A stretch of 64,000 nt of DNA from Acidimicrobiaceae bacterium. Lineage in GTDB: Bacteria > Actinomycetota > Acidimicrobiia > Acidimicrobiales > Aldehydirespiratoraceae. Below are positions 1 to 10,494 of the stretch, piece by piece (within the stretch, counting starts at the first letter, position 1; each line of letters begins with the position of its first letter). The notes beneath the pieces are model-generated. The model worked only from the letters and a program-made list of their open reading frames with translations, was not told the DNA's origin and did not search any database. Where the stretch lies: the NCBI GenBank assembly GCA_028820455.1, contig JAPPJC010000006.1:34682-98681 (forward strand), written 5' to 3'. The translations under genes were made by a program, and so were the position numbers.

Positions 1-25
1 TCTCTTTACATACAGAACAGCTGGA

Positions 26-115
26 TCAGTGACTACAAAGCCGCTGACCGATGAAGTTTATCGCGTCTATGCGTTCTAGTTGTTGGCTCAGCGACTACAA
101 AGCCGCTGAGCCAAC
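26..115. repeat. Duplicated 22-nt motif; the second copy sits in a perfect 12-bp-stem hairpin
   Basis: tcag(t/c)gactacaaagccgctga occurs at 26-47 and 88-109 (62-bp spacing, 1 mismatch). 82-93 gttggctcagcg pairs perfectly with 104-115 cgctgagccaac (10-nt loop) and is followed by TTTAT on the + strand. Confidence 0.5.
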
Positions 116-333
116 TTTATGAAGGGCTTCCATAGCTTCAGTGGCATTCAAATGGGCATTGACCTTGGCTGTATTAGCCATGGTAGTTCGTATTCTAAAT
201 CCTTCAACCTACTCGAAATCTTACTGCAATCGAAAGGGTGTGACAGTACCACTGTCGAATGCATCGGAGTAATCAAATACAGCACTCTCCAAAATCGTTT
301 CGGAAGTTTATTTTGGTTTACTCAACCCCAAGC

Positions 334-1455
334 TTATGTTAATATTTCAGTCAAGGCCGCTACGAAGAACTCGATCTCTGATGGAGTTCCCACGCTTACT
401 CTAAGACATCCCTCAAAATAAGGCCATGAAGAACAGTTTCTCACCAAAACCGAGCGGTTGAGCAGCTGCTGCCAGACCTCGGTTGCAGGCATAGTCAAGG
501 TGCGAAACAATATGAAATTAGCTTCTGAAGGCCATGTCTTGACAGGCAACTCGGCCAGACTCGACATTAGCTGTACCCGACCCGCAGTTATGGTAGCTAC
601 ACGTTTTCGCATGTCTTCTTCATGCTGAAGTGTTGTGATGCCAATAGCCTGTTTGAGAGTATCAAGGTGGTACGGCAACACTACTTTGTCGAGTTGTTCC
701 ACAATAGAGGTAGTGCCTACTAGATAGCCAAGCCGTGCTGCGGCCATGCCCCAAGCTGCTTTAGAGAATGTGCGTGTTACTACTAGCGGACTGTCTGAAT
801 CGTTTCTCAGCAGTTCAAGCGCACTACGCGAGGCGAATTCCCCGTAGGCCTCATCGACGCATAGCAGCCCACCCACAGATCGGACAGCTTCAAGTACTGC
901 GGCTATTGTTTCAATGGGTTCGGCAAGGCCGGTCGTGTTGTTAGGCGAACACAAAAAAGTCAACGACGGACGTTCAGTGGATATCAGTTCAACAGCCCTG
1001 TCTACATCAAGGGTGAAATCCTCAAGACGCTCACCCGAGATCATCTCGGCACCAGTCACTCCGATCAAGTGCTCATACAGACTATACGTGGGTTCGAACA
1101 CTGCTACTGAACCACTAGCGGCAGCAAAAGCAAGCAGCAAACATTGCAATACTTCGTTAGAACCATTGGCAGCAAAAATCTGTTCTGGTGAAACACCGTA
1201 AAACTCAGCGATACTACGACGCAGCTTAACCGCACAGCGGTCGGGGTAACGGTTCCAATCCACCGTCTGAATAGCCTCTGAAATAGAATCTGTCAAAGCC
1301 ACTGAAGTAGCGTAGGGACTTTCATTGAAGTTGAGTCGAATCTTCGCGTTCAGCTGATCCTCGACGTCTAAATGTGTTACCATCGCGTCAATGGCATCAC
1401 GTGCTTGAGTCTTCATATCAGATGTGAGATCAACTCTCGAATGTAGCAGGATCAA
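334..1455 (-). CDS. hisC: Histidinol-phosphate aminotransferase (class II aminotransferase)
   Basis: 373-aa ORF with the PLP-lysine context TRTFSKAAWGMAAARLGY, N-terminal LNFNESPY and NRYPD motifs, and CSPNNTTG. The track start is TTG. ATG at 1416 (MKTQARD...) is an alternative start that removes the 26-nt overlap with metG. Confidence 0.85.
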   Translation of the reverse strand: MILLHSRVDLTSDMKTQARDAIDAMVTHLDVEDQLNAKIRLNFNESPYATSVALTDSISEAIQTVDWNRYPDRCAVKLRRSIAEFYGVSPEQIFAANGSNEVLQCLLLAFAAASGSVAVFEPTYSLYEHLIGVTGAEMISGERLEDFTLDVDRAVELISTERPSLTFLCSPNNTTGLAEPIETIAAVLEAVRSVGGLLCVDEAYGEFASRSALELLRNDSDSPLVVTRTFSKAAWGMAAARLGYLVGTTSIVEQLDKVVLPYHLDTLKQAIGITTLQHEEDMRKRVATITAGRVQLMSSLAELPVKTWPSEANFILFRTLTMPATEVWQQLLNRSVLVRNCSSWPYFEGCLRVSVGTPSEIEFFVAALTEILT

Positions 1456-3070
1456 CTTTCGAGAATAGGGGAGGAAGCTTGGCTAGTTGCAGGCCTTGCG
1501 ACAATTCAGGACGTTTCCATTCTGTAATCGGACCGAAAACCCTTCCCAAAGCTTCAGTGGAGAACGGTAAGTAGGGTGAAAACGCAATCCGCACGCCTGC
1601 CACAGCTTGCACCGCCGTCGCTACCACCGCAGCGGCTCGTTCAGGATCGCTGCTCTTGAGCTTCCAGGGTTCTGTGGCGTTCAGATAAGCATTGACCTTG
1701 GTCGCTGTTTCCATGGCTGTACGTAAACCAGCTTTCAAAGCTACACGCTCAATTTGGTCAGCCTCAACAAGCAATGCACCATCCACGGCTGCTAGCAACG
1801 ATCTATCTTCTTCCGCTATGGTGGCTTCTGCGTTAACTTCCGGGAATATTCCACCAAGCACAGACTGAGCTAAAGACAGCACACGATTGACTAGATTACC
1901 CCAGGTGGCTACAAGCTCATTGTTGATCCGTCGTACAATCTCGCCTATTGAGGTATCAGAATCCGCATGTTCGGGCATCAACGACGCTAATGCATAACGC
2001 AGCGCGTCAGGTTCAAAGAATTTGAGCCCGTCCCCTATTGTTGTGCCAACACCACGGCTCGCCGAAGCTTTCTGACCAGAAAAAGTCACATATTGCGTGC
2101 CTGCTACAATATCCGGTAACCGCAACCCACCATAAGCCATAAGCTGCGCAGGCCAAAACAAAGTGTGAAAAGGTATGTTATCCTTCCCTAAGAAGTACAC
2201 GTGCAAGGCGTCATCGTTTTGCCACCAGCGTTTCCACCGATCTGTGTCGCCGTTTTGTGCAGCCCATTCTTTGGAAGCAGACAAGTAGCCGATCACTGCG
2301 TCATACCATACATAGATACATTTGCCTTCACCAAGATCATCGACCGGTAGTTCTATCCCCCAGTCGAGGTCACGGGTAACAGCACGGTCTTGTAAGCCTT
2401 CATCGGTCCATCCAAGGGAAGAGTTCAAAACATGGGGACGCCATCCTTTGCGAGTGCGAAGCCATTTAGCTACATCTTCTGAGAGATCAGAAAAACGGAA
2501 GTAGAAGTGTTCGGTTGATCTCATAACAGGTTCCGAACCGGTGATCTTGGAGCGAGGCTTCAAAAGATCTACGGGATCAAGAGGACGACCACAGTTTTCG
2601 CACTGGTCGCCGCGGGCTTCTTCGTACATGCAATGGGGGCAGACACCGTTTATGTACCGATCAGGCAGGAAACGTTCAGCCACGGGATCGTAAAACTGTT
2701 CTGACGCTTTCTTGTAGATGAACCCTTTCTTGAGATGGCTCAAGAACATTTCTTGAGTGGCAGCAGTGTGGTTCGGGGTGCCTGTGGTCGTGTATAAATC
2801 AAAGGTAATGCCGAGGGCATTCCACTGCTGACAGAATTCGCTGTGAGAACGATCAGCGATCTCTGACGGTGCTACCCCTTCAGTGTCAGCACGCACCGTG
2901 ATAGGGGTGCCATGGACGTCGGAACCACTGACCATCAACACGTCATTGCCCTTCAAACGCTGGAAACGGGCGTAAATGTCGGCTGGCAAGTAGACACCAG
3001 CAAGATGGCCGAGATGACGACTACCCGACGCGTAAGGCCAAGCAACTGCTACAAGAACGGGGGTGCTCAT
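1430..3070 (-). CDS. metG: Methionyl-tRNA synthetase
   Basis: 546 aa with a HIGH-type motif (SRHLGHLAG), zinc knuckles CPHC...CENCG, and the KMSKS-equivalent KASASRG. The anticodon-binding helical C-terminus is typical of MetRS. Confidence 0.95.
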   Translation of the reverse strand: MSTPVLVAVAWPYASGSRHLGHLAGVYLPADIYARFQRLKGNDVLMVSGSDVHGTPITVRADTEGVAPSEIADRSHSEFCQQWNALGITFDLYTTTGTPNHTAATQEMFLSHLKKGFIYKKASEQFYDPVAERFLPDRYINGVCPHCMYEEARGDQCENCGRPLDPVDLLKPRSKITGSEPVMRSTEHFYFRFSDLSEDVAKWLRTRKGWRPHVLNSSLGWTDEGLQDRAVTRDLDWGIELPVDDLGEGKCIYVWYDAVIGYLSASKEWAAQNGDTDRWKRWWQNDDALHVYFLGKDNIPFHTLFWPAQLMAYGGLRLPDIVAGTQYVTFSGQKASASRGVGTTIGDGLKFFEPDALRYALASLMPEHADSDTSIGEIVRRINNELVATWGNLVNRVLSLAQSVLGGIFPEVNAEATIAEEDRSLLAAVDGALLVEADQIERVALKAGLRTAMETATKVNAYLNATEPWKLKSSDPERAAAVVATAVQAVAGVRIAFSPYLPFSTEALGRVFGPITEWKRPELSQGLQLAKLPPLFSKVDPATFES

Positions 3071-3106
3071 ATCTACCTCTATACTATCTTTATCATTACA
3101 CTAAGA

Positions 3107-3856
3107 TTAGGTGGCTACTACAGGATCGGATGGTCGTTCTCGACACTTATCGTAACCAACCACTTCTAAAAACACTTTGTTCAAATAGCTGTTTATCACT
3201 GGATGATCCTTGAAACCGAGAAACAGTTCTCCGCTCACCCGGCCTCTGCCGATCAGTTTTCGCACGAATTCAGGTATTGTCCATTCATCAGATAGAGAAA
3301 CCAGCTCGGGCAGCAACTTCAACCATAGTGACCGTGCATCCATTTGAAGTTGCAGCAAAGTCTGTCGGTCGCCTACAAGCTGAATGGTTCGACCTGTAAT
3401 CGCATTCAAAAGCAGCCGTAACCGTAATTCTTCCGACTCAAGAAACTCTTTTGTCTTGACTACTCGAGACAGACGCGCTTCACCATCATCTCCCAGTAAA
3501 AACTTTCCGCTACTTGCGAGTGTCATATCCTCAAAAGTTGCGACTAATTTGCGTTCGAACGGTACTTCGTCATCCAGTGCCAGTCCCCATTCCCGGTGGA
3601 ACTCCACAATCAATTTGATCAATTCCTGCAGACTGGAAGAATCATAAGCATCCGATACTATCAATACGTCAACATCTGATGTGTCACCCTCAATACCATA
3701 AGCATACGAACCGTAGACGAATGCCATGCTTTCATGAGCATCCAACGCTTCTGTGAGTATTTCTGTCAATGCTGTTAAAACCTGCCGAGATTTGCGAGAT
3801 AGAACCTCTTGCTCAAACATCATGAAAATCAGGGGAGCCTTTGACCGGATGAACAC
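3107..3856 (-). CDS. Pol-beta-fold nucleotidyltransferase with helical C-terminal half (KNTase-like architecture)
   Basis: GSYAYGIEGDTSDVDVLIV matches the G-S...D-x-D minimal NTase signature. A helical region of about 150 aa follows. The track start is GTG at 3856. The ATG pair at 3823/3820 lies 6 nt after the decarboxylase stop and is the likelier start. Confidence 0.7.
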   Translation of the reverse strand: MFIRSKAPLIFMMFEQEVLSRKSRQVLTALTEILTEALDAHESMAFVYGSYAYGIEGDTSDVDVLIVSDAYDSSSLQELIKLIVEFHREWGLALDDEVPFERKLVATFEDMTLASSGKFLLGDDGEARLSRVVKTKEFLESEELRLRLLLNAITGRTIQLVGDRQTLLQLQMDARSLWLKLLPELVSLSDEWTIPEFVRKLIGRGRVSGELFLGFKDHPVINSYLNKVFLEVVGYDKCRERPSDPVVAT

Positions 3857-5418
3857 TCATCAGCGATCACTGAGAGGTATCCCAAAAAATCAACTAGCAC
3901 TGCTTCGCTGATGAGCGGGTTCCCTGACATGAATCGTAGAACATTAACAGAGAAATCCCGTCCACAACCGATGCGATTCAAATCATCTGCAATGACAAAA
4001 GAATGAATATAGTACTTACCCTCAGCCATGACCTGTTCATAGATTCTCCGATTAAGCACCGACAGTTCTTCTGCTTGGGAAAGAGTCATACCATCCCCAC
4101 GGAACTTGCGTGGCACGTAAACAAACGTCACGGAGTTGAACATCACGTCATTGATAAGCAGAAATCGTTCATCTTTGCGAATCATCTCTGCAAAAGTCTG
4201 TGCCATATCACAACGCTGTTCGACCAGCTCGGCAATACCCGAAACACCGTGCATTTTCATTAACATCCACAACCTGCATGCAATGAATGCCTTCGACCCG
4301 ACGACCGGTGTCCTTCGTCCTAGTGAACGACCCTGGCGCATGATCAAATCAGATTCCGTGTCGATCACCCGTAGGACTTCCGGTCTGGCAACCAAAAAAA
4401 GTGAAAGCGGGTACGGAACCGCTAAAACCTTATGAGGATCAACCGTTACAGAGTCGTATAGCTCAATCCCTTGAAGGTGATGTCTCAACTTCTCAGAAAA
4501 AGCCAGGCTCGTCCCGTGGCATCCATCACAGTGAAGCCAAGTATCAGGAGATTCGCCCCGAACAAGATCATGCAGTCCTGTTAAATCCTCAATAGTCATG
4601 GTTCGACTATCCCCAGCGTACGCGACCAACATAATTATTCGTTCTCCATTTTCACGGGCTGCACGGAATAGCCTGGACAGTGCTCGCTGGTCGTAGCGAT
4701 AGCCACGAATCGGTGCTTCGATCATATTTTCACTACCCAACCCGCACCACGCCAGCGAAGCTGCAACTGTGTAATGCTTGATTCCTTCAGGAACCACCAC
4801 TTTGACCTTAGAAGTGTCAAACCTGACACCAGTTTTCTTTGTGCCTGGAAATGCTCGTTCACGTGCTAGAAGGGCAGCAGCATAGTTGGACATCGTCCCC
4901 CCGTAGAGAACCATTCCACCGACGTTGTCAATACTGTCTTGTTCCTCGTATTCTGAAAAAGGCTGTGCGGCATCGTAGCCGATAATCTCACGGAACCAAT
5001 TAATAACCGAAATCTCCATTTCAGCTGCCACGCGCGAACAAAAAGTTGAGTTGATCATGTTGACGTTCAAAAAATCGCTCAGCACAGCACCGCTCAAACC
5101 TGCTATGCTATTCCCAGCATCCGGAAAGCCTAAAAAATGAGGTGAGGCAAAATTTGGCATACCCGGAAGGTAATCAGCAGCCAGGGAATCAAGGACATCG
5201 TCTATTGCAGTGGGTGTTGTCGGTAACCCCTCCTCTACAACCTGTCGTGGTGGCTTACCTTGTTTCCGATGATAGAACTGTTTGCGGGACTTGAAATCAA
5301 ACCCCAGCTCTACGACACGAGCTAGTATCCTCGCAGCCTCATTTTTTGATATTCCTCGATGGCCAACAAAATAATCGCGTAAACTCATCAAAGGATTATA
5401 CCCCGCCGTTTTAATCAT
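3829..5418 (-). CDS. Group II PLP-dependent decarboxylase (pyridoxal_deC-type)
   Basis: Motifs GGTMSNYAA, LHCDGCHGTS (H-x-D-A-A-type) and VDPHKVL (PLP lysine). I place the start at ATG 5418 (MIKTAGYNPLMSLRDYF...). The 123 extra Cys-rich codons of the 652-aa track ORF look non-coding. Confidence 0.85.
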   Translation of the reverse strand: MIKTAGYNPLMSLRDYFVGHRGISKNEAARILARVVELGFDFKSRKQFYHRKQGKPPRQVVEEGLPTTPTAIDDVLDSLAADYLPGMPNFASPHFLGFPDAGNSIAGLSGAVLSDFLNVNMINSTFCSRVAAEMEISVINWFREIIGYDAAQPFSEYEEQDSIDNVGGMVLYGGTMSNYAAALLARERAFPGTKKTGVRFDTSKVKVVVPEGIKHYTVAASLAWCGLGSENMIEAPIRGYRYDQRALSRLFRAARENGERIIMLVAYAGDSRTMTIEDLTGLHDLVRGESPDTWLHCDGCHGTSLAFSEKLRHHLQGIELYDSVTVDPHKVLAVPYPLSLFLVARPEVLRVIDTESDLIMRQGRSLGRRTPVVGSKAFIACRLWMLMKMHGVSGIAELVEQRCDMAQTFAEMIRKDERFLLINDVMFNSVTFVYVPRKFRGDGMTLSQAEELSVLNRRIYEQVMAEGKYYIHSFVIADDLNRIGCGRDFSVNVLRFMSGNPLISEAVLVDFLGYLSVIADECSSGQRLP

Positions 5419-5668
5419 CCAATGGGCTATAGGCCACCAGCAACCACTGCAGATATCGGTAAGATGAAAGGCTAGAGAGCATCCCACCAACAAAGACAGA
5501 AAAGCAGCAGAAAAGCCCTCACACTGAAAAGCCCTCACGCTGAACGAGGTTGAGAACGTGGGTGACCTTTGCAGCGACTCTTGAAGATTCCAGAAGATTC
5601 CAAATGTGCAACATACATACCCCTTCACCCAATAAATCTTCGTATCATCAAAAGAAGCACCCAACCCA

Positions 5669-5938
5669 CTATTCAGACTCCCGACTATTGGGCCAAGGCA
5701 GCAACAGCCAATCAGACTCGCCAAGTTCCTTAGCAGAAGCGTACACAAGCCCAAACTGAGAACCACTCTCCATAATCTTACGCTCAACCAACTCAGCCAC
5801 AGTCACTGTAGCTGCCTCATACTGCGTATCCCCGACACCCCAACCCCATTCTTCCGGGCTCATATCCTCGCCACCGTCCGGTATTGCACAGACAATCCAA
5901 CGCAGACCATCGATAGCCCGAAGCCCCACGAACTTCAC
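5669..5938 (-). CDS. Small hypothetical ORF inside the SagB/decarboxylase cluster (64-89 aa depending on start)
   Basis: It is co-oriented with its neighbours, between the SagB-like pair and the decarboxylase. Start is GTG at 5938 or ATG at 5863 (MSPEEWGWGVGDTQYEAATVTVAELVERKIMESG...). Composition is protein-like, but there is no recognisable motif and the RBS is weak. Confidence 0.25.
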   Translation of the reverse strand: MKFVGLRAIDGLRWIVCAIPDGGEDMSPEEWGWGVGDTQYEAATVTVAELVERKIMESGSQFGLVYASAKELGESDWLLLPWPNSRESE

Positions 5939-6036
5939 TCCAAGAGCCTGAACGTCTTAGATCACCAAGACACTCAACACCCCTCCCCCTCACGACAAAC
6001 ACCAGTACCAACCAACCACAAGATCATGGCGATTAT

Positions 6037-6969
6037 CTATAGCAATTGGCGTCGACCCGTTGTTGCAGTATGAACCACCATATCAAAAGAACTCCCAAAC
6101 CCGAGCAACTCACTCAGTGCGTTATCACGCACAGCCGATGTGATCACTGATCCATATCGAAGATTCTCAGCATGGAGCAAATACTCCTGACACCAAACGC
6201 CGCTTAACAAATACAAGTCCGTCAAAGCAGAACAGGCCCCAACAGCCTGCCCTAATAACCTCTCTGAATTCACCACCCACAATACAGTCCAATTAGCCGC
6301 AAGCACAGACGATTGGTCACACATTCCAGTGCGCATCGAAGAACGAAGATCATCCTCAGAAACCGAAAGCGAAAGCTGAAGTTCGCCATCAGATTCCTTT
6401 TCCTCATAAACACCACTGGAATAGCCCTCTACCGAATACACCGCCACAAACCGTCTCAAACGAAGATCGTCGACATGCAATCCTGAACGCGTCCGAATAT
6501 CGGGCATTCCAACCACCGCAACCCGACTACCCTTCACAATCTGCTCAAAATCATCAGCCGGAGCACTGTCCAATCGATATTCATAGAGTGAACGACGGTT
6601 CAACAAAGTCTCAACCAGCGGACGAGACCGCCGCAGCCCAGGATCATCAGGGTCCTCGGCGTGAATCCCAGGTTCAGGAGAGACACTGGTAACAGTACCC
6701 GAAACAGGTGAACTCCGAAACATCTCAACATCGAAAGCGAGGCCCCATCCACGCTCTTCCCATCTCTCGATCAAATGCTTATCCACACACCCAGACGATC
6801 GGGCCGACGCTTTCACAAACGAAGCAGGCATTTCATCATCGACGGTGAAATCAATCGCCTCTGACACCGACAAGTCAAGCCAGACATCCAACTCAGGAAT
6901 ACCGAAACGTACTGGAGACCGCTCATTGCATGAAGATTCCAGAACAATCCTAGTCGGCTGCATCGTCAT
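6037..6969 (-). CDS. Nitroreductase/SagB-like protein, degenerate (lacks the PSAG..P.E.Y motif)
   Basis: 310 aa. LLNRRSLYEY resembles the nitroreductase RRS.R.F motif. SSGVYEE and the C-terminal LTDLYLLSGVWCQEYLLHAENLRYGS...DNALSELLGF follow the SagB-fold layout. It starts 12 nt after the upstream SagB gene. Confidence 0.45.
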   Translation of the reverse strand: MTMQPTRIVLESSCNERSPVRFGIPELDVWLDLSVSEAIDFTVDDEMPASFVKASARSSGCVDKHLIERWEERGWGLAFDVEMFRSSPVSGTVTSVSPEPGIHAEDPDDPGLRRSRPLVETLLNRRSLYEYRLDSAPADDFEQIVKGSRVAVVGMPDIRTRSGLHVDDLRLRRFVAVYSVEGYSSGVYEEKESDGELQLSLSVSEDDLRSSMRTGMCDQSSVLAANWTVLWVVNSERLLGQAVGACSALTDLYLLSGVWCQEYLLHAENLRYGSVITSAVRDNALSELLGFGSSFDMVVHTATTGRRQLL

Positions 6970-6981
6970 CTCTACGAAAAC

Positions 6982-8268
6982 CTAGCTAGCAGGCTTGTGC
7001 AACCTCATCACGGCAACACCACTCTCTTCCAACCGTTCAAACCCTAGGCTTTTCTGAATCTGGTCATGGTCCAATGCCAGTGAGACCGATGTCCGGTAAC
7101 CACAATTCTCGAAAATACGCGCTGCCGTCATTATAAGATGGCCGACATCCATGAAAACAAGCCGATACGACCGAGAAGTAGAATACTTGCACATCGTCCG
7201 TTCGAATACTGGCGCAAAAAGCAAATAGAAGACTTCGTCCTGCTCATTCAGAAGTAGTGAATCCCCGAAATCTGCCCACAAACCAGCAGAGCAATCCTCG
7301 GTTATCGGCAAAGAAACCAGACCAGCAGGATCCATCTGACAGTGATACAAACTTGGAGCTGTAAACTGTCGTCCCAACATGTACGCAATATATACTTCAG
7401 TCGGATGATGTGAACCAGCAGACGGAGACGTCCGCAACAATAAAGGCTCAGCATCAGCAAACACTTTGCGTTCTCCAACCTTAGTAGTCAGCAACCACAA
7501 AAGCTGTAGCAAAGGTACCTCCTGCTGTGCACTATTGAACCGCCCGCAAGCTGGGCCTAAATCCAAACCACCGACCAACGACCGATCACCAGCCAAATCA
7601 ATCGCACTACCCCGTATCCGCTTGCACCGAACAAAATCAGCCCATTCAGGATCCATCGCTCGACTAGGGTTGCTCGTATCATGCCGATCGTCGTCATCAC
7701 GCTGATTATGGTCATCAGAACCAATAGACGGAACATCGAACATTGCAGTTGTCGCATAATGATAATACCAAGCCAAACGCTGCTCCAACGACGCGGGAAG
7801 CTCAGAAAATTTTTCCGCATCCTGAACAGGTACTAAGATTCCTTCATCTAACAGCCTGTTCGCAAGACCTAAAACACTGTCAGGATTGACACCGAACTGC
7901 TCGCTGACATCACTGACAAGTTCACTGATCGTCTGCTTGCGCATAGCTAAAAGAATCAGTACCACCCCAGCCGCTCCCACCTTATAACTACGGCTGTCCA
8001 ACACTAACTCTATAATCCATCTACGCGTAAGCGAAGACCTAAGGATCCTCACCCCCTGAGCGGAACAAACAAGCATCCGACCGCTGCTCATTGGGCTTCC
8101 ATCCACGATAACATAACGAGTGAACAACCCTCCAGACTGTACAGAGTTCTGAGTTAAGGCCCTTCCAATGGAATCCAGTATACCGTGGTGTAGCGTCTCA
8201 TCGGGATGAACCACCAAAGCGTCGGCTTTTTGTCGATATATGATACAGATACCAGTTTTTGAAAGCAC
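6982..8268 (-). CDS. SagB/ThcOx-type dehydrogenase with N-terminal PqqD/RRE-like winged-helix region
   Basis: RTSPSAGSHHPTEVY matches the SagB R..PS(A/G)G...P.E.Y motif. SRSYRLVFMDVGHLIMTAARIFENCGY matches the YR....EAGH...N core. Residues about 85-150 (YKVGAAGVVLILLAMRKQTISELVSDVSEQFGVNPDSVLGLANRLLDEGILVPV) read like a PqqD-type peptide-recognition element. GTG start. Confidence 0.75.
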   Translation of the reverse strand: MLSKTGICIIYRQKADALVVHPDETLHHGILDSIGRALTQNSVQSGGLFTRYVIVDGSPMSSGRMLVCSAQGVRILRSSLTRRWIIELVLDSRSYKVGAAGVVLILLAMRKQTISELVSDVSEQFGVNPDSVLGLANRLLDEGILVPVQDAEKFSELPASLEQRLAWYYHYATTAMFDVPSIGSDDHNQRDDDDRHDTSNPSRAMDPEWADFVRCKRIRGSAIDLAGDRSLVGGLDLGPACGRFNSAQQEVPLLQLLWLLTTKVGERKVFADAEPLLLRTSPSAGSHHPTEVYIAYMLGRQFTAPSLYHCQMDPAGLVSLPITEDCSAGLWADFGDSLLLNEQDEVFYLLFAPVFERTMCKYSTSRSYRLVFMDVGHLIMTAARIFENCGYRTSVSLALDHDQIQKSLGFERLEESGVAVMRLHKPAS

Positions 8269-8565
8269 TTTCCTTGGAGGAGCGCAGCTTAAACGCCTAC
8301 TCCTTGCCTTCGCTATTCGTGCATGTCAATGGCTTTCTCGGCTTCCTCAACGTAAGCTTTGGCGAACTCTGCGGGGTTGTCGGGCTCGACTTCTGCCTGA
8401 GGCTCTGAGGCGGTAGCAGATCATGCGGCCTGAGAGTCAGCCTGAATAGCCTGTATAACCGAAGAACATTCCGTTGCTTCCAGTCTCACACCAATAGCAG
8501 GAATAAAACAAGGAATAAGCAAAAACAGTAGGCAGAGAGAGAGCCAGAGTGCGACCGACAATACC

Positions 8566-10494
8566 ATGTCTTCAGAAATTGAACTCCTGGCCGCAGCCGT
8601 TACGGTGATCCGGCATTCCAATGCACTGATACTCGCAGCGACTCACGGCGACATGACAGATGCGGATCTGAGCAGGTTAGCGGAAGAAGTGGCCGATCAC
8701 GAGGCAGGGCTGAGCGCTGCCTTGAATGTTTTAACGGACACGGATTACGACGAACGCGTGGATCGCATCAACGCCCTTGCCGATCGCCTGATAGCGAATG
8801 CGGCGCTGATCACCGAAGGAAGGCCATCGCTGCTGAAGGTGATAATCGATTCAGACGCCGACATTCGCCGCCTTCGCATCGCTAACACCACTCGGATGTC
8901 ACCTGCCTCGATCACGACAAAGGACAACCAGTTCTCCAGCCTCGCTAACAGAACCGACCGTGATTCCCAACGATCACACGAAGAAGACGTGCTCCTGTTT
9001 GAACAGGCTGCAACATTGTCGAGCGATCTGGCACTCAATCAGACGCTTCTAGCAGTCGTCAGCAGGTTGAACGATCCGACCCACCTGGCACGGATACAGG
9101 AGATATTCGACTCTGCGGCCAACCGCATCGAGCGGGCTGTGGAGTACCTAGACGCATACGGTGGGAGCGAACTGGTCCCGGGGTTCCTCCCCCTAGCTGA
9201 GCAGCAGCTCGCTGCCGGTAAGGGACCGGACAACTATTTCGATCTTCTGCAACGTCGACTCGACCTGGTTGTGGCAGAGCGTGATCTGATCGACGAGAAT
9301 ACGGAGATCCGTAACGAGTTGCTGTTCGAGATCGAGAGTTTGACTGCCGAGATCGAAGGAAAACCGGTACCAGAGATGACGATCTCCGCAGTCGACGAAA
9401 CCGATGAAAGCGGCATCACTGATGAGACGGTACTCTTCGGGCAGTCAGCCGCTTTCAGTGGGCCGACACAAGCACTCGGCGAGGATATGCGCCGCGGTAT
9501 CGAGGCTGCGTTCCAAGAGGTGAACGAATCCGGGGGTGTTCACGGTCGCAGTGTGCAACTCACTACACTCGACGATACCTACGAGTCTGATTTTGCGTTC
9601 GCCAACACTTTGCGCCTGATCGAAGATGAAAAAGTCTTCGCGCTGATCGGTGCTGTCGGCACGCCTACCTCACGGGCAGCGTCACCGCTTGCGCACGCAG
9701 CCGGTGTACCGTTCATCGCTCCGTTCACCGGTGCCGAATTGTTGCGCGACTCCGAGATGGCCAACACCCTCAACGTGCGTGCCTCGTACTACCAGGAAAC
9801 AGAAACAATGATCGAGCGTCTCACCGAAGACTTGGACATTACCCGTGTGGCGGTGCTCTATCAGAATGATTCTTACCGACTCAACGGTTTGGAAGGCGTG
9901 CGTCGAGCACTTGAACGCCGGGGATTGGAACCGGTTGCCTCGTGGTACTACCAGCGCAACACCACTGCCGTGAAATCGGCAGTGTTCCGAATAGCCGCCG
10001 CCGATCCCGAGGCCGTTATCATCATCGGCTCATACGCACCCGCAGCGGAGAGTGTCAAGTTACTGCAAGACAGTCTTGAATCCGACCCTGTGTTCATGAC
10101 GGTGTCGTTCGTGGGTAGCGAAGCATTGGCAGATGAACTCGGCGATACCGGAACCAGCTTCTACGTGACGCAAGTGGTACCCCTGCCGGACGACACGTCG
10201 CTTCCGGTCGTGGCTGCACTACAGGCCTTCGATCCCGATGCAGAGCCCGGGTTCGTGTCGCTGGAGGGATATCTGGCCGGCCGATTAGCGATCGCAGGTC
10301 TCGAGCTGTGTGGCCCCGACCTCAGCAGAGAATGTTTCCTAGAGGCCGTGTATGACTCGCAGACAATCGACATCGACGGACTACAGCTCGAGTTCACAAC
10401 CGGTGACAACCAAGGTTCCGACGACGTTGTCCTGACTGTGATCGGGCCAGATGGGAACTACCACCGAGTCGACAGTCTCAACCAAACGCCCTAG
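8566..10494 (+). CDS. Signal-less fusion: ~285-aa helical N-domain plus type-1 periplasmic-binding-protein fold (LivJ/AmiC-like)
   Basis: The C-terminal 350 aa (VLFGQSAAFSGPTQALGEDMRRGIEAAFQEVNESGGVHGRSVQLTTLDDTYES...FALIGAVGTPTS...GVPFIAPFTGA) follow the Leu/Ile/Val-binding-protein pattern. There is no hydrophobic signal or TM segment at the N-terminus. An in-frame TGA at 8443-8445 forbids upstream extension. Confidence 0.7.
   Translation: MSSEIELLAAAVTVIRHSNALILAATHGDMTDADLSRLAEEVADHEAGLSAALNVLTDTDYDERVDRINALADRLIANAALITEGRPSLLKVIIDSDADIRRLRIANTTRMSPASITTKDNQFSSLANRTDRDSQRSHEEDVLLFEQAATLSSDLALNQTLLAVVSRLNDPTHLARIQEIFDSAANRIERAVEYLDAYGGSELVPGFLPLAEQQLAAGKGPDNYFDLLQRRLDLVVAERDLIDENTEIRNELLFEIESLTAEIEGKPVPEMTISAVDETDESGITDETVLFGQSAAFSGPTQALGEDMRRGIEAAFQEVNESGGVHGRSVQLTTLDDTYESDFAFANTLRLIEDEKVFALIGAVGTPTSRAASPLAHAAGVPFIAPFTGAELLRDSEMANTLNVRASYYQETETMIERLTEDLDITRVAVLYQNDSYRLNGLEGVRRALERRGLEPVASWYYQRNTTAVKSAVFRIAAADPEAVIIIGSYAPAAESVKLLQDSLESDPVFMTVSFVGSEALADELGDTGTSFYVTQVVPLPDDTSLPVVAALQAFDPDAEPGFVSLEGYLAGRLAIAGLELCGPDLSRECFLEAVYDSQTIDIDGLQLEFTTGDNQGSDDVVLTVIGPDGNYHRVDSLNQTP

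Follow-up and report, generated by a model that had tools for sequence, protein, structure and literature searches.

The window analyzed here is a 64,000-nucleotide stretch of contig JAPPJC010000006.1 from an Acidimicrobiaceae bacterium, and the genes of interest form a minus-strand series close to its beginning. Five co-oriented open reading frames (ORFs) had been reported there in an initial annotation, namely a SagB/ThcOx-type dehydrogenase of 428 amino acids (aa; here gene A), a degenerate nitroreductase-like partner of 310 aa (gene B), a small ORF, a group II pyridoxal 5'-phosphate (PLP)-dependent decarboxylase and a Pol-beta nucleotidyltransferase (NTase). Together these had been read as a possible single tailoring module lacking the YcaO cyclodehydratase. 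A check of the sequence and its ORFs found all five in place, and the features of the region, with their coordinates in the window, are as follows.

334-1455, minus strand: HisC-type class I/II aminotransferase (TIGR01141), overlapping the end of metG
1430-3070, minus strand: archaeal-type methionyl-tRNA synthetase (MetRS), metG (TIGR00398)
3107-3856, minus strand: Pol-beta-superfamily (MNT-like) nucleotidyltransferase, 249 aa (PF01909)
3829-5418, minus strand: group II PLP-dependent decarboxylase, 529 aa (PF00282)
5419-5619, minus strand: inter-module junction, non-coding filler
5620-5953, minus strand: YcaO pseudogene remnant, approximately the first 110 codons of a YcaO gene
6037-6969, minus strand: gene B, degenerate SagB/nitroreductase-fold partner, 310 aa
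6982-8091, minus strand: gene A, RiPP recognition element (RRE)-like N-terminal domain and SagB/McbC-type flavin mononucleotide (FMN) dehydrogenase domain; the ORF is open to 8268
8113-8202, minus strand: precursor-peptide-like segment DETLHHGILDSIGRALTQNSVQSGGLFTRY, sharing the frame of gene A, no stop codon intervening

The small ORF at 5669-5938, initially taken for a gene of its own, was found to be the N-terminus (approximately the first 95 codons) of a YcaO gene. In tblastn searches the remnant was 71-78% identical over approximately 95-101 residues to the YcaO proteins of loci L005 and L006 and to P0007 (E ~1e-40), and it matched the Pfam YcaO proteins of L001 and L007 with E values of 2e-14 and 2e-15, respectively. 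At L005 and L006, the closest relatives of the window (~89% nucleotide identity), B is followed by a gene whose product runs on as a Pfam YcaO, and P0007 (L008, 780-1790) is an example of the full protein at 336 aa. The remnant lies in frame -1 at 5953-5672 and in frame -2 at 5664-5620; a 1-nt insertion relative to L005, L006 and L008 results in a TAG stop at 5669-5671, past which the similarity persists in another frame for approximately 15-23 codons. Nucleotide homology to these three loci ends at 5616-5621 (blastn breakpoints). Approximately the 3' two-thirds of the gene has been lost, and hmmsearch with a profile of the family YcaO found the rest neither after the NTase gene nor elsewhere in the 64 kb. 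The remnant is more diverged than A and B, with 0.13 nonsynonymous (pN) and 0.31 synonymous (pS) differences per site. The locus appears to be YcaO-less through destruction of its YcaO gene and not by design. The earlier statement that the window encodes neither a YcaO nor a ThiF/Ocin-like partner held in that there is no intact YcaO and no E1-like gene, but it had missed the truncated, frameshifted YcaO between B and the decarboxylase.

Comparison of gene neighborhoods placed the two halves of the series in different company. An intact YcaO gene adjoins A/B at five of seven related loci (L001/L002, L005, L006, L007 and L008), with the order YcaO-peptide-A-B in L001, A-B-YcaO in L005, L006 and L008, and YcaO-A in L007. 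The order peptide-A-B is found in L001, L003 and L004, and the L003 contig ends with B, short of any position where a YcaO could follow. The YcaO of the family is small and standalone (336-416 aa); the only RRE-like domain found at these loci sits on A, and neither the window region nor the Pfam listings of L001-L008 contain an E1-like or Ocin-ThiF gene. On this gene order the conserved unit appears to consist of a 37-41-aa peptide followed by A and B, to which most loci add a small standalone YcaO. B does not seem to be universal: in L007 (122-2622) YcaO is directly followed by A without a B gene, and after A there is a convergent gene which by eye resembles shikimate dehydrogenase.

None of the eight A/B loci (L001-L008) encodes a homologue of the decarboxylase, the NTase, the MetRS or the aminotransferase and, conversely, none of seven decarboxylase/NTase loci (L009-L014, L018) encodes a homologue of A, B or YcaO. 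Seven other loci have an NTase homologue (28-57% identity) immediately downstream of their decarboxylase, and an NTase-like gene follows the decarboxylase in each of L009-L014. In L010 (5714-10967), L011 (6001-11093) and L013 (7001-12078), where the decarboxylase is 55-58% identical to that of the window, the order is decarboxylase, NTase of ~232-255 aa, class I/II aminotransferase and MetRS. In Nocardia vermiculata (L014, 7001-11041, and L015; 45% identity) it is decarboxylase-NTase-MetRS, with start and stop codons overlapping between genes in the L014 gene calls.

We therefore consider it likely that two independent modules abut near position 5618. Module 1 (5620-8268) would be a decaying copy of a rare azole-type cluster for a ribosomally made peptide with post-translational modifications (RiPP), similar to those for thiazole/oxazole-modified microcins (TOMM) and linear azol(in)e-containing peptides (LAP). 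Module 2 (334-5418) would be a separate conserved cassette of PLP decarboxylase, MNT-like NTase, MetRS and class I/II aminotransferase. The adjacency of the SagB part and the decarboxylase/NTase part is then accidental, an outcome that the initial annotation had itself foreseen as adjacency upstream of metG/hisC, and the neighborhood data do not bear out its inclusion of the decarboxylase and NTase in the SagB module.

Gene A matched TIGR03605 (SagB) with an E value of 1.1e-12 and 47.8 bits, not reaching the curated cut-off of 78.4, and TIGR04511 (SagB_rel_DH_2) with 1.2e-13 and 50.9 bits, not reaching the cut-off of 240; a Pfam scan of the gene gave no match. The family assignment made earlier was upheld, but not the length of 428 aa. 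The start is probably ATG 8091 (369 aa) and not GTG 8268, because all six homologues are 335-376 aa long and align from Met60 of the 428-aa ORF. These six were the only ones among 5.8 billion clustered proteins; they come from Acidimicrobiaceae-type metagenome bins, one of them being annotated as from an Acidimicrobiaceae metagenome-assembled genome. GTDB species representatives and JGI metagenomes, when scanned by pattern, yielded no relatives of A. A profile search of 1.84 billion representatives returned 1302 remote relatives at E<=1e-3 (397 at E<=1e-10), mostly of 350-390 aa; as most of them aligned over their full length, the architecture of N-terminal domain plus SagB domain appears to be widespread though uncharacterized. 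Ten remote relatives that were scanned scored 71-116 bits against TIGR04511, all under the cut-off.

An AlphaFold2 (AF2) model of A, made from an alignment of 80 sequences, had a mean predicted local distance difference test (pLDDT) score of 82. Comparison of the model with the PDB by Foldseek ranked ThcOx first (E 1.7e-12) and after it BmdC, McbC and the tandem protein 3EO7, and the E values for ThcOx, BmdC and McbC ranged from 1e-12 to 1e-9. The RRE-like domain corresponds to approximately 7816-8091 and the SagB/McbC-type domain to approximately 6982-7524. Residues 7-92 were modeled as strands followed by three helices (pLDDT 88-97) and when used alone in Foldseek matched PqqD (5sxy), TbiB1 (5v1u/5v1v), the lasso protein B1 (6jx3) and TigE over ~85 residues with a root-mean-square deviation of 2.4-3.2 Å. 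The predicted structure confirmed an RRE-type (PqqD-like) winged-helix fold for the N-terminal domain, as first suggested from the sequence. The presence of an RRE on a dehydrogenase is not unprecedented, because ThcOx carries such domains. At the sequence level the best PDB match of A was 3EO7 (E 1.1e-6), with McbC at 5e-4. A retains the segment RTSPSxGSxHPTExY and the (K/R)Y motif, aligned with McbC and 3EO7, and across the A homologues RTSPSxGxxHPxExY and (K/R)Y are conserved.

Gene B begins 12 nt past the A stop codon. L001 and L003-L006 keep it directly behind A, and L008 has a partial copy before YcaO (54-88% identity). Its matches to TIGR03605 (E 2.6e-5, covering only model positions 44-172), TIGR04511 (E ~1e-5, 24.4 bits, cut-off 240) and Pfam Nitroreductase (0.015) agree with its earlier description as a degenerate SagB/nitroreductase-like protein, as does the B family alignment, in which no equivalents of the PSGG flavin-site motif or the (K/R)Y catalytic motif were found. 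Judged by these motifs, A is active-looking and B degenerate. A structure model of B, built from three sequences (pLDDT 52), matched McbC, 3EO7 and BmdC in fold at a low confidence which makes it indicative only; the AlbAB cyclodipeptide oxidase was among the fold matches of both the A and the B model.

The B profile aligned to the C-terminal half of P0173, a 697-aa protein of Kribbella sandramycini (hhalign probability 97%), the N-terminal half of which is A-like, and P0203 has the same A-B fusion layout. Because of these natural "Rosetta stone" fusions, A and B probably act as a pair. The nitroreductase fold is dimeric, and for this reason we infer a nitroreductase-fold heterodimer of A and B with one competent flavin site; ThcOx acts as a homodimer. 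Between the window and its relatives A and B showed pN of 0.045-0.069 and pS of 0.14-0.18. Their pN/pS of ~0.3 equaled the values among the relatives, and the neighboring binding-protein gene had 0.17.

L001, L003 and L004 each have an ORF of 37-41 aa that lies 130-300 nt upstream of A. The encoded peptides share ...LS(L/I)EEV...(D/N)VALxQ(N/S), followed by a core of 3-11 residues that contains Cys in two of the three; the putative leader segment is MLSLEEVDTFNVALPQN. When six-frame translations of the window and L001-L007 were searched with the motif [DNGR][VRA][AS]L.Q[NS], it occurred only immediately upstream of A, once each in the window (nt 8166), L003, L004, L005 and L006, twice in L001 and not at all in L007, on whose contig no motif-bearing peptide was found; the pattern had been widened after the window sequence was seen, so that these statistics are indicative only. 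The second copy in L001 (9588-9850; VDTFNVALPQNYWILLFQQNPASFGDSSF...) is in frame right after the stop codon of the 37-aa precursor, has no obvious start codon and might be a precursor that arose by duplication or is made by read-through.

The motif takes the form GR(A/S)LTQNSVQSGGLFTRY in the window, L005 and L006, where it stands in the frame of A, 22 codons before the ATG, with no stop codon between (window 8113-8202, minus strand; L005 ~1975-2070; L006 ~215-325). A core of 46 nt is nearly invariant in the three, with two synonymous differences, in contrast to a variable linker. The three do not share upstream start codons, and in L005 a frameshift immediately precedes the segment. The in-frame segment could be a peptide-enzyme fusion, a cis leader or a relic. 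Other small ORFs upstream of A (calls of 25, 56 and 78 aa, and "MRRYTTVYWIPLEGP") were rejected as precursors as they are unconserved among the window, L005 and L006; the 78-aa ORF was called in L005 and the 56-aa ORF in L006. Upstream of the precursor-like segment, approximately 150 nt (window 8312-8461) are shared with L005 and missing from L006.

On the preferred reading, the 37-41-aa precursor of the intact relatives would be bound through its (D/N)VALxQ(N/S) leader motif by the RRE-like domain of A. Cyclodehydration of Cys, Ser or Thr in the short core would fall to the small standalone YcaO, acting without an E1-like partner, and A, paired with the catalytically degenerate B to give one competent FMN site, would oxidize the azolines to azoles. 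In the window the YcaO would have been inactivated by the frameshift and stop together with the loss of its 3' two-thirds, A and B being still intact, and module 2 would have taken the place of the distal part of the YcaO gene. The C-termini of the YcaO proteins of L007 (PVPHPFW) and L001 (PVPHFFW) are of the PxPxP type, and a C-terminal PxPxP motif is tied to azoline-forming YcaOs (PMC12338566). Between L005 and L006 the YcaO gene is under purifying selection (pN/pS 0.21). The last ~70 residues of P0007, from the TARA relative L008, diverge from the YcaOs of L001 and L007 and lack a PxPxP-type motif; degeneration of YcaO in the clade of the window may extend beyond the window itself.

Among known systems, the cyanobactin azoline oxidases such as ThcOx (PDB 5LQ4, 8PZ5) resemble A in the fusion of RRE-like N-terminal domains to an FMN nitroreductase-fold azoline dehydrogenase. 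A single RRE-like domain and a dedicated degenerate partner distinguish A from ThcOx, which has two such domains; the two proteins are only ~14% identical in sequence, and module 1 lacks the PatD-type heterocyclase and the protease of ThcOx clusters. With McbBCD (microcin B17) and SagBCD of the TOMM/LAP type, module 1 shares a SagB/McbC-type dehydrogenase, a YcaO and a candidate leader-bearing precursor, and A and McbC have the PSGG...P.E.Y and (K/R)Y motifs in common. Unlike those systems, the module 1 family has no E1-like/Ocin-ThiF (McbB/SagC) partner, carries the RRE on the dehydrogenase, and has a small standalone YcaO, dead in the window, and a second, degenerate dehydrogenase paralogue; the TIGR03605 scores also lie below the cut-off. 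Paired SagB-type nitroreductase domains are found in 3EO7 (Ava_2154), P0173 and P0203, which are tandem or fused and of uncharacterized function, whereas A and B are separate genes. TIGR04511 ("putative peptide maturation dehydrogenase") has the layout of A, with ~380 aa and an N-terminal extension before the SagB domain. It is the best NCBIfam match of A and of its remote relatives, yet A is not a member (50.9 versus 240 bits), and the family is itself uncharacterized. Module 1 would represent a very rare azole-type RiPP cluster family, probably of Acidimicrobiaceae.

Turning to module 2, the decarboxylase scored 135 bits against PF00282 (cut-off 27) and contains the DPHK lysine motif. No equivalog cut-off was reached (PanP, 139 bits versus 606), its PDB relatives are TDC, AADC, CSAD and GAD, and more than 378 homologues were found. 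It is a clear member of the group II PLP decarboxylases, together with PanP, diaminobutyrate (DABA) decarboxylase and the aromatic amino-acid decarboxylases, as had been proposed. The NTase, also correctly recognized at the outset, scored 27.5 bits against PF01909 (cut-off 21, E 4e-6) and is a clear member of the MNT/KNTase-like minimal nucleotidyltransferases; the motif YGSYAYG...SDVDVL is invariant in the family alignment. It likely starts at ATG 3823 and has a C-terminal helical domain, and among solved structures the MntA antitoxin comes closest (E 5.6e-4), matching the N-domain only. A pattern scan for the NTase found none in GTDB species representatives and one metagenome locus, L012. 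In N. farcinica the decarboxylase and NTase genes are ~1 kb apart, and on the B. cereus plasmid pRML02 an NTase-aminotransferase pair and a decarboxylase lie within a larger cluster with acyl carrier protein and adenylating-enzyme genes.

A class I/II aminotransferase belongs to the cassette in L010, L011, L013 and L016. The metG and hisC genes of the window lie downstream; they look like partners of the decarboxylase and NTase and appear to belong to that side. Their membership of module 2 is uncertain, because they are not orthologous to the cassette copies elsewhere. The window MetRS scored 480 bits against TIGR00398, its closest structure being the P. abyssi MetRS 1rqg (E 3e-125), and the aminotransferase passes the HisC equivalog TIGR01141 with 291 bits. 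We rejected a view of the MetRS as a paralogue with a degenerate KMSKS, as the KASAS/KFSTS-type motif is normal for archaeal-type MetRS (P. abyssi 1rqg). A defense-system role was likewise rejected: PADLOC matched only the NTase domain, weakly, to the candidate families PDC-M05A/S09, and had no hits for A, B or the decarboxylase. Our guess is that module 2 makes or handles an amine-containing small molecule. The combination of decarboxylase, NTase, MetRS and class I/II aminotransferase matches no pathway that we found and is apparently undescribed, and our literature search found no paper on the cassette or on the module 1 cluster type.

Approximately 200 nt of non-coding filler separate the YcaO remnant from the decarboxylase start. 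Within it (5520-5610, minus strand) are short tandem duplications, GGAATCTTC twice and GTGAGGGCTTTTC twice, and the junction sequence has no similarity to the relatives of either module. We also rejected an RNA element such as a riboswitch or T-box, whether placed at the junction or upstream of the cassette, as Rfam gave no match at E<=1 in 1-9000 and none at the gathering score in the whole window. A promoter and terminator scan returned nothing informative between B and the decarboxylase, with fewer promoter-like sites than in shuffled sequences.

Two other accounts of the locus were weighed. One takes all five genes as a single operon in which the decarboxylase and NTase would act as tailoring enzymes on the peptide or small molecule made by the SagB pair, giving a new combined pathway. 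The co-orientation and tight packing of the genes fit this, as does the lack of a convincing terminator or promoter between B and the decarboxylase, and the daptides show in principle that RiPP C-termini can undergo PLP-dependent and decarboxylative tailoring (PMC12338566). The two gene sets, however, are never neighbors in related loci, a pseudogene and ~200 nt of filler stand between them, the decarboxylase-NTase pair has conserved partners of its own, and the daptide enzymes, NAD-dependent DapBC and a class III aminotransferase, are of other families (PMC12338566). A daptide-like C-terminal tailoring by the decarboxylase and aminotransferase was rejected on this last ground, and a single operon, which the synteny already largely refutes, we regard as extremely improbable. 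The abrupt end of homology at ~5618 could also reflect a chimeric join in a metagenome contig, in which case the organism would truly have an intact A-B-YcaO cluster. The source is apparently a metagenome assembly (a 100% match to P0009 on a 118-kb contig), and the short duplications within the junction are compatible with such an event. Against this, the 1-nt insertion with its stop at 5669-5671 is a lesion in its own right, ~50 nt before the breakpoint, the remnant is unusually diverged, GC and GC content at third codon positions (GC3) are alike on both sides, and there is no repeat at the join that is common to other parts of the window. A chimera is disfavored by the independent frameshift and the similar composition, and we give it only a slim chance.

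A more serious competitor, still unlikely in our estimation, holds that A-B is a YcaO-independent, leader-guided peptide dehydrogenase that forms, for example, dehydroamino acids or makes another -2 Da change. The module of the window would then still be functional and the YcaO of the relatives an accessory tailoring enzyme. A and B are intact and constrained as in the relatives despite the dead YcaO, the L004 contig carries peptide-A-B with no YcaO, and the L008 YcaO has a diverged, shortened C-terminus without PxPxP. There is precedent in the nitroreductase domain of PflD, which makes dehydrophenylalanine without a YcaO and for which the authors propose similar chemistry in other YcaO-free nitroreductases (PMC12636437). 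PflD and AlbAB both perform nitroreductase-fold Cα/Cβ dehydrogenation of peptides without YcaO (PMC12636437), and AlbAB, present among the fold matches, has two subunits, as proposed for A-B. Its fold matches are weaker, however, than those to azoline oxidases, and PflD, unlike A, is fused to an MNIO. In both structure and sequence A finds its best matches among the azoline oxidases ThcOx, BmdC and McbC. A YcaO adjoins A/B in most related loci in varying gene order, which points to functional linkage, it is under purifying selection between L005 and L006, and on such short contigs it could lie just past the ends of L003 and L004. We think it rather doubtful that all of the following hold jointly, namely that A-B is self-sufficient without YcaO, that in the lineage of the window the substrate or leader peptide is fused in cis to the RRE domain of the enzyme, as a precursor-enzyme fusion or a cis-activating leader, with the module still active, and that the cassette represents an undescribed MetRS-linked small-molecule pathway.

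Several observations weigh against our preferred reading of a decayed azole cluster beside an unrelated cassette. A and B are undecayed, with only 2-3 unique changes at otherwise invariant columns; the loss of YcaO would therefore be recent, or A-B does not need YcaO. The 6.2-kb contig of L004 carries peptide-A-B but lacks a YcaO. Azole chemistry is left unsecured by the very short cores, of which the L003 one lacks Cys, and a separately terminated precursor gene was not found in the lineage of the window. For module 2, L009 and L012, whose decarboxylases are 66% identical to that of the window, have decarboxylase-NTase and then no MetRS within ~900 nt, and identity to the cassette copies reaches only ~35% for the window MetRS and ~27% for its HisC, where the decarboxylase has 55-66%. 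To these is added the small probability of an assembly chimera at ~5618.

Two flanking regions were also noted. The YcaO-free peptide-A-B genes of L004 (3816-6006) are flanked by toxin-antitoxin-type genes (HicB-like, Phd/YefM-like, Fic), which suggests a mobile or variable genomic region. On the other side of A in the window, a divergently oriented plus-strand gene (8566-10494) encodes a 642-aa protein with a Peripla_BP_6 (branched-chain amino-acid/urea-type) binding domain preceded by a helical-looking N-terminal extension of ~290 residues. Its GC3 is 0.64 compared to ~0.47 for the genes on the other side, and the gene adjoins A in L005 too.

For the window itself the value of this analysis is mainly corrective. 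What looked like an exotic module of SagB proteins, decarboxylase and NTase would be the result of gene decay and accidental adjacency, and therefore it is not to be pursued as one pathway. For those who mine genomes for natural products, the locus points to a rare azole-type RiPP family with its RRE on the dehydrogenase, a degenerate partner and a standalone YcaO, and to an uncharacterized decarboxylase/NTase cassette that recurs with MetRS in Nocardia and in several metagenomic lineages.

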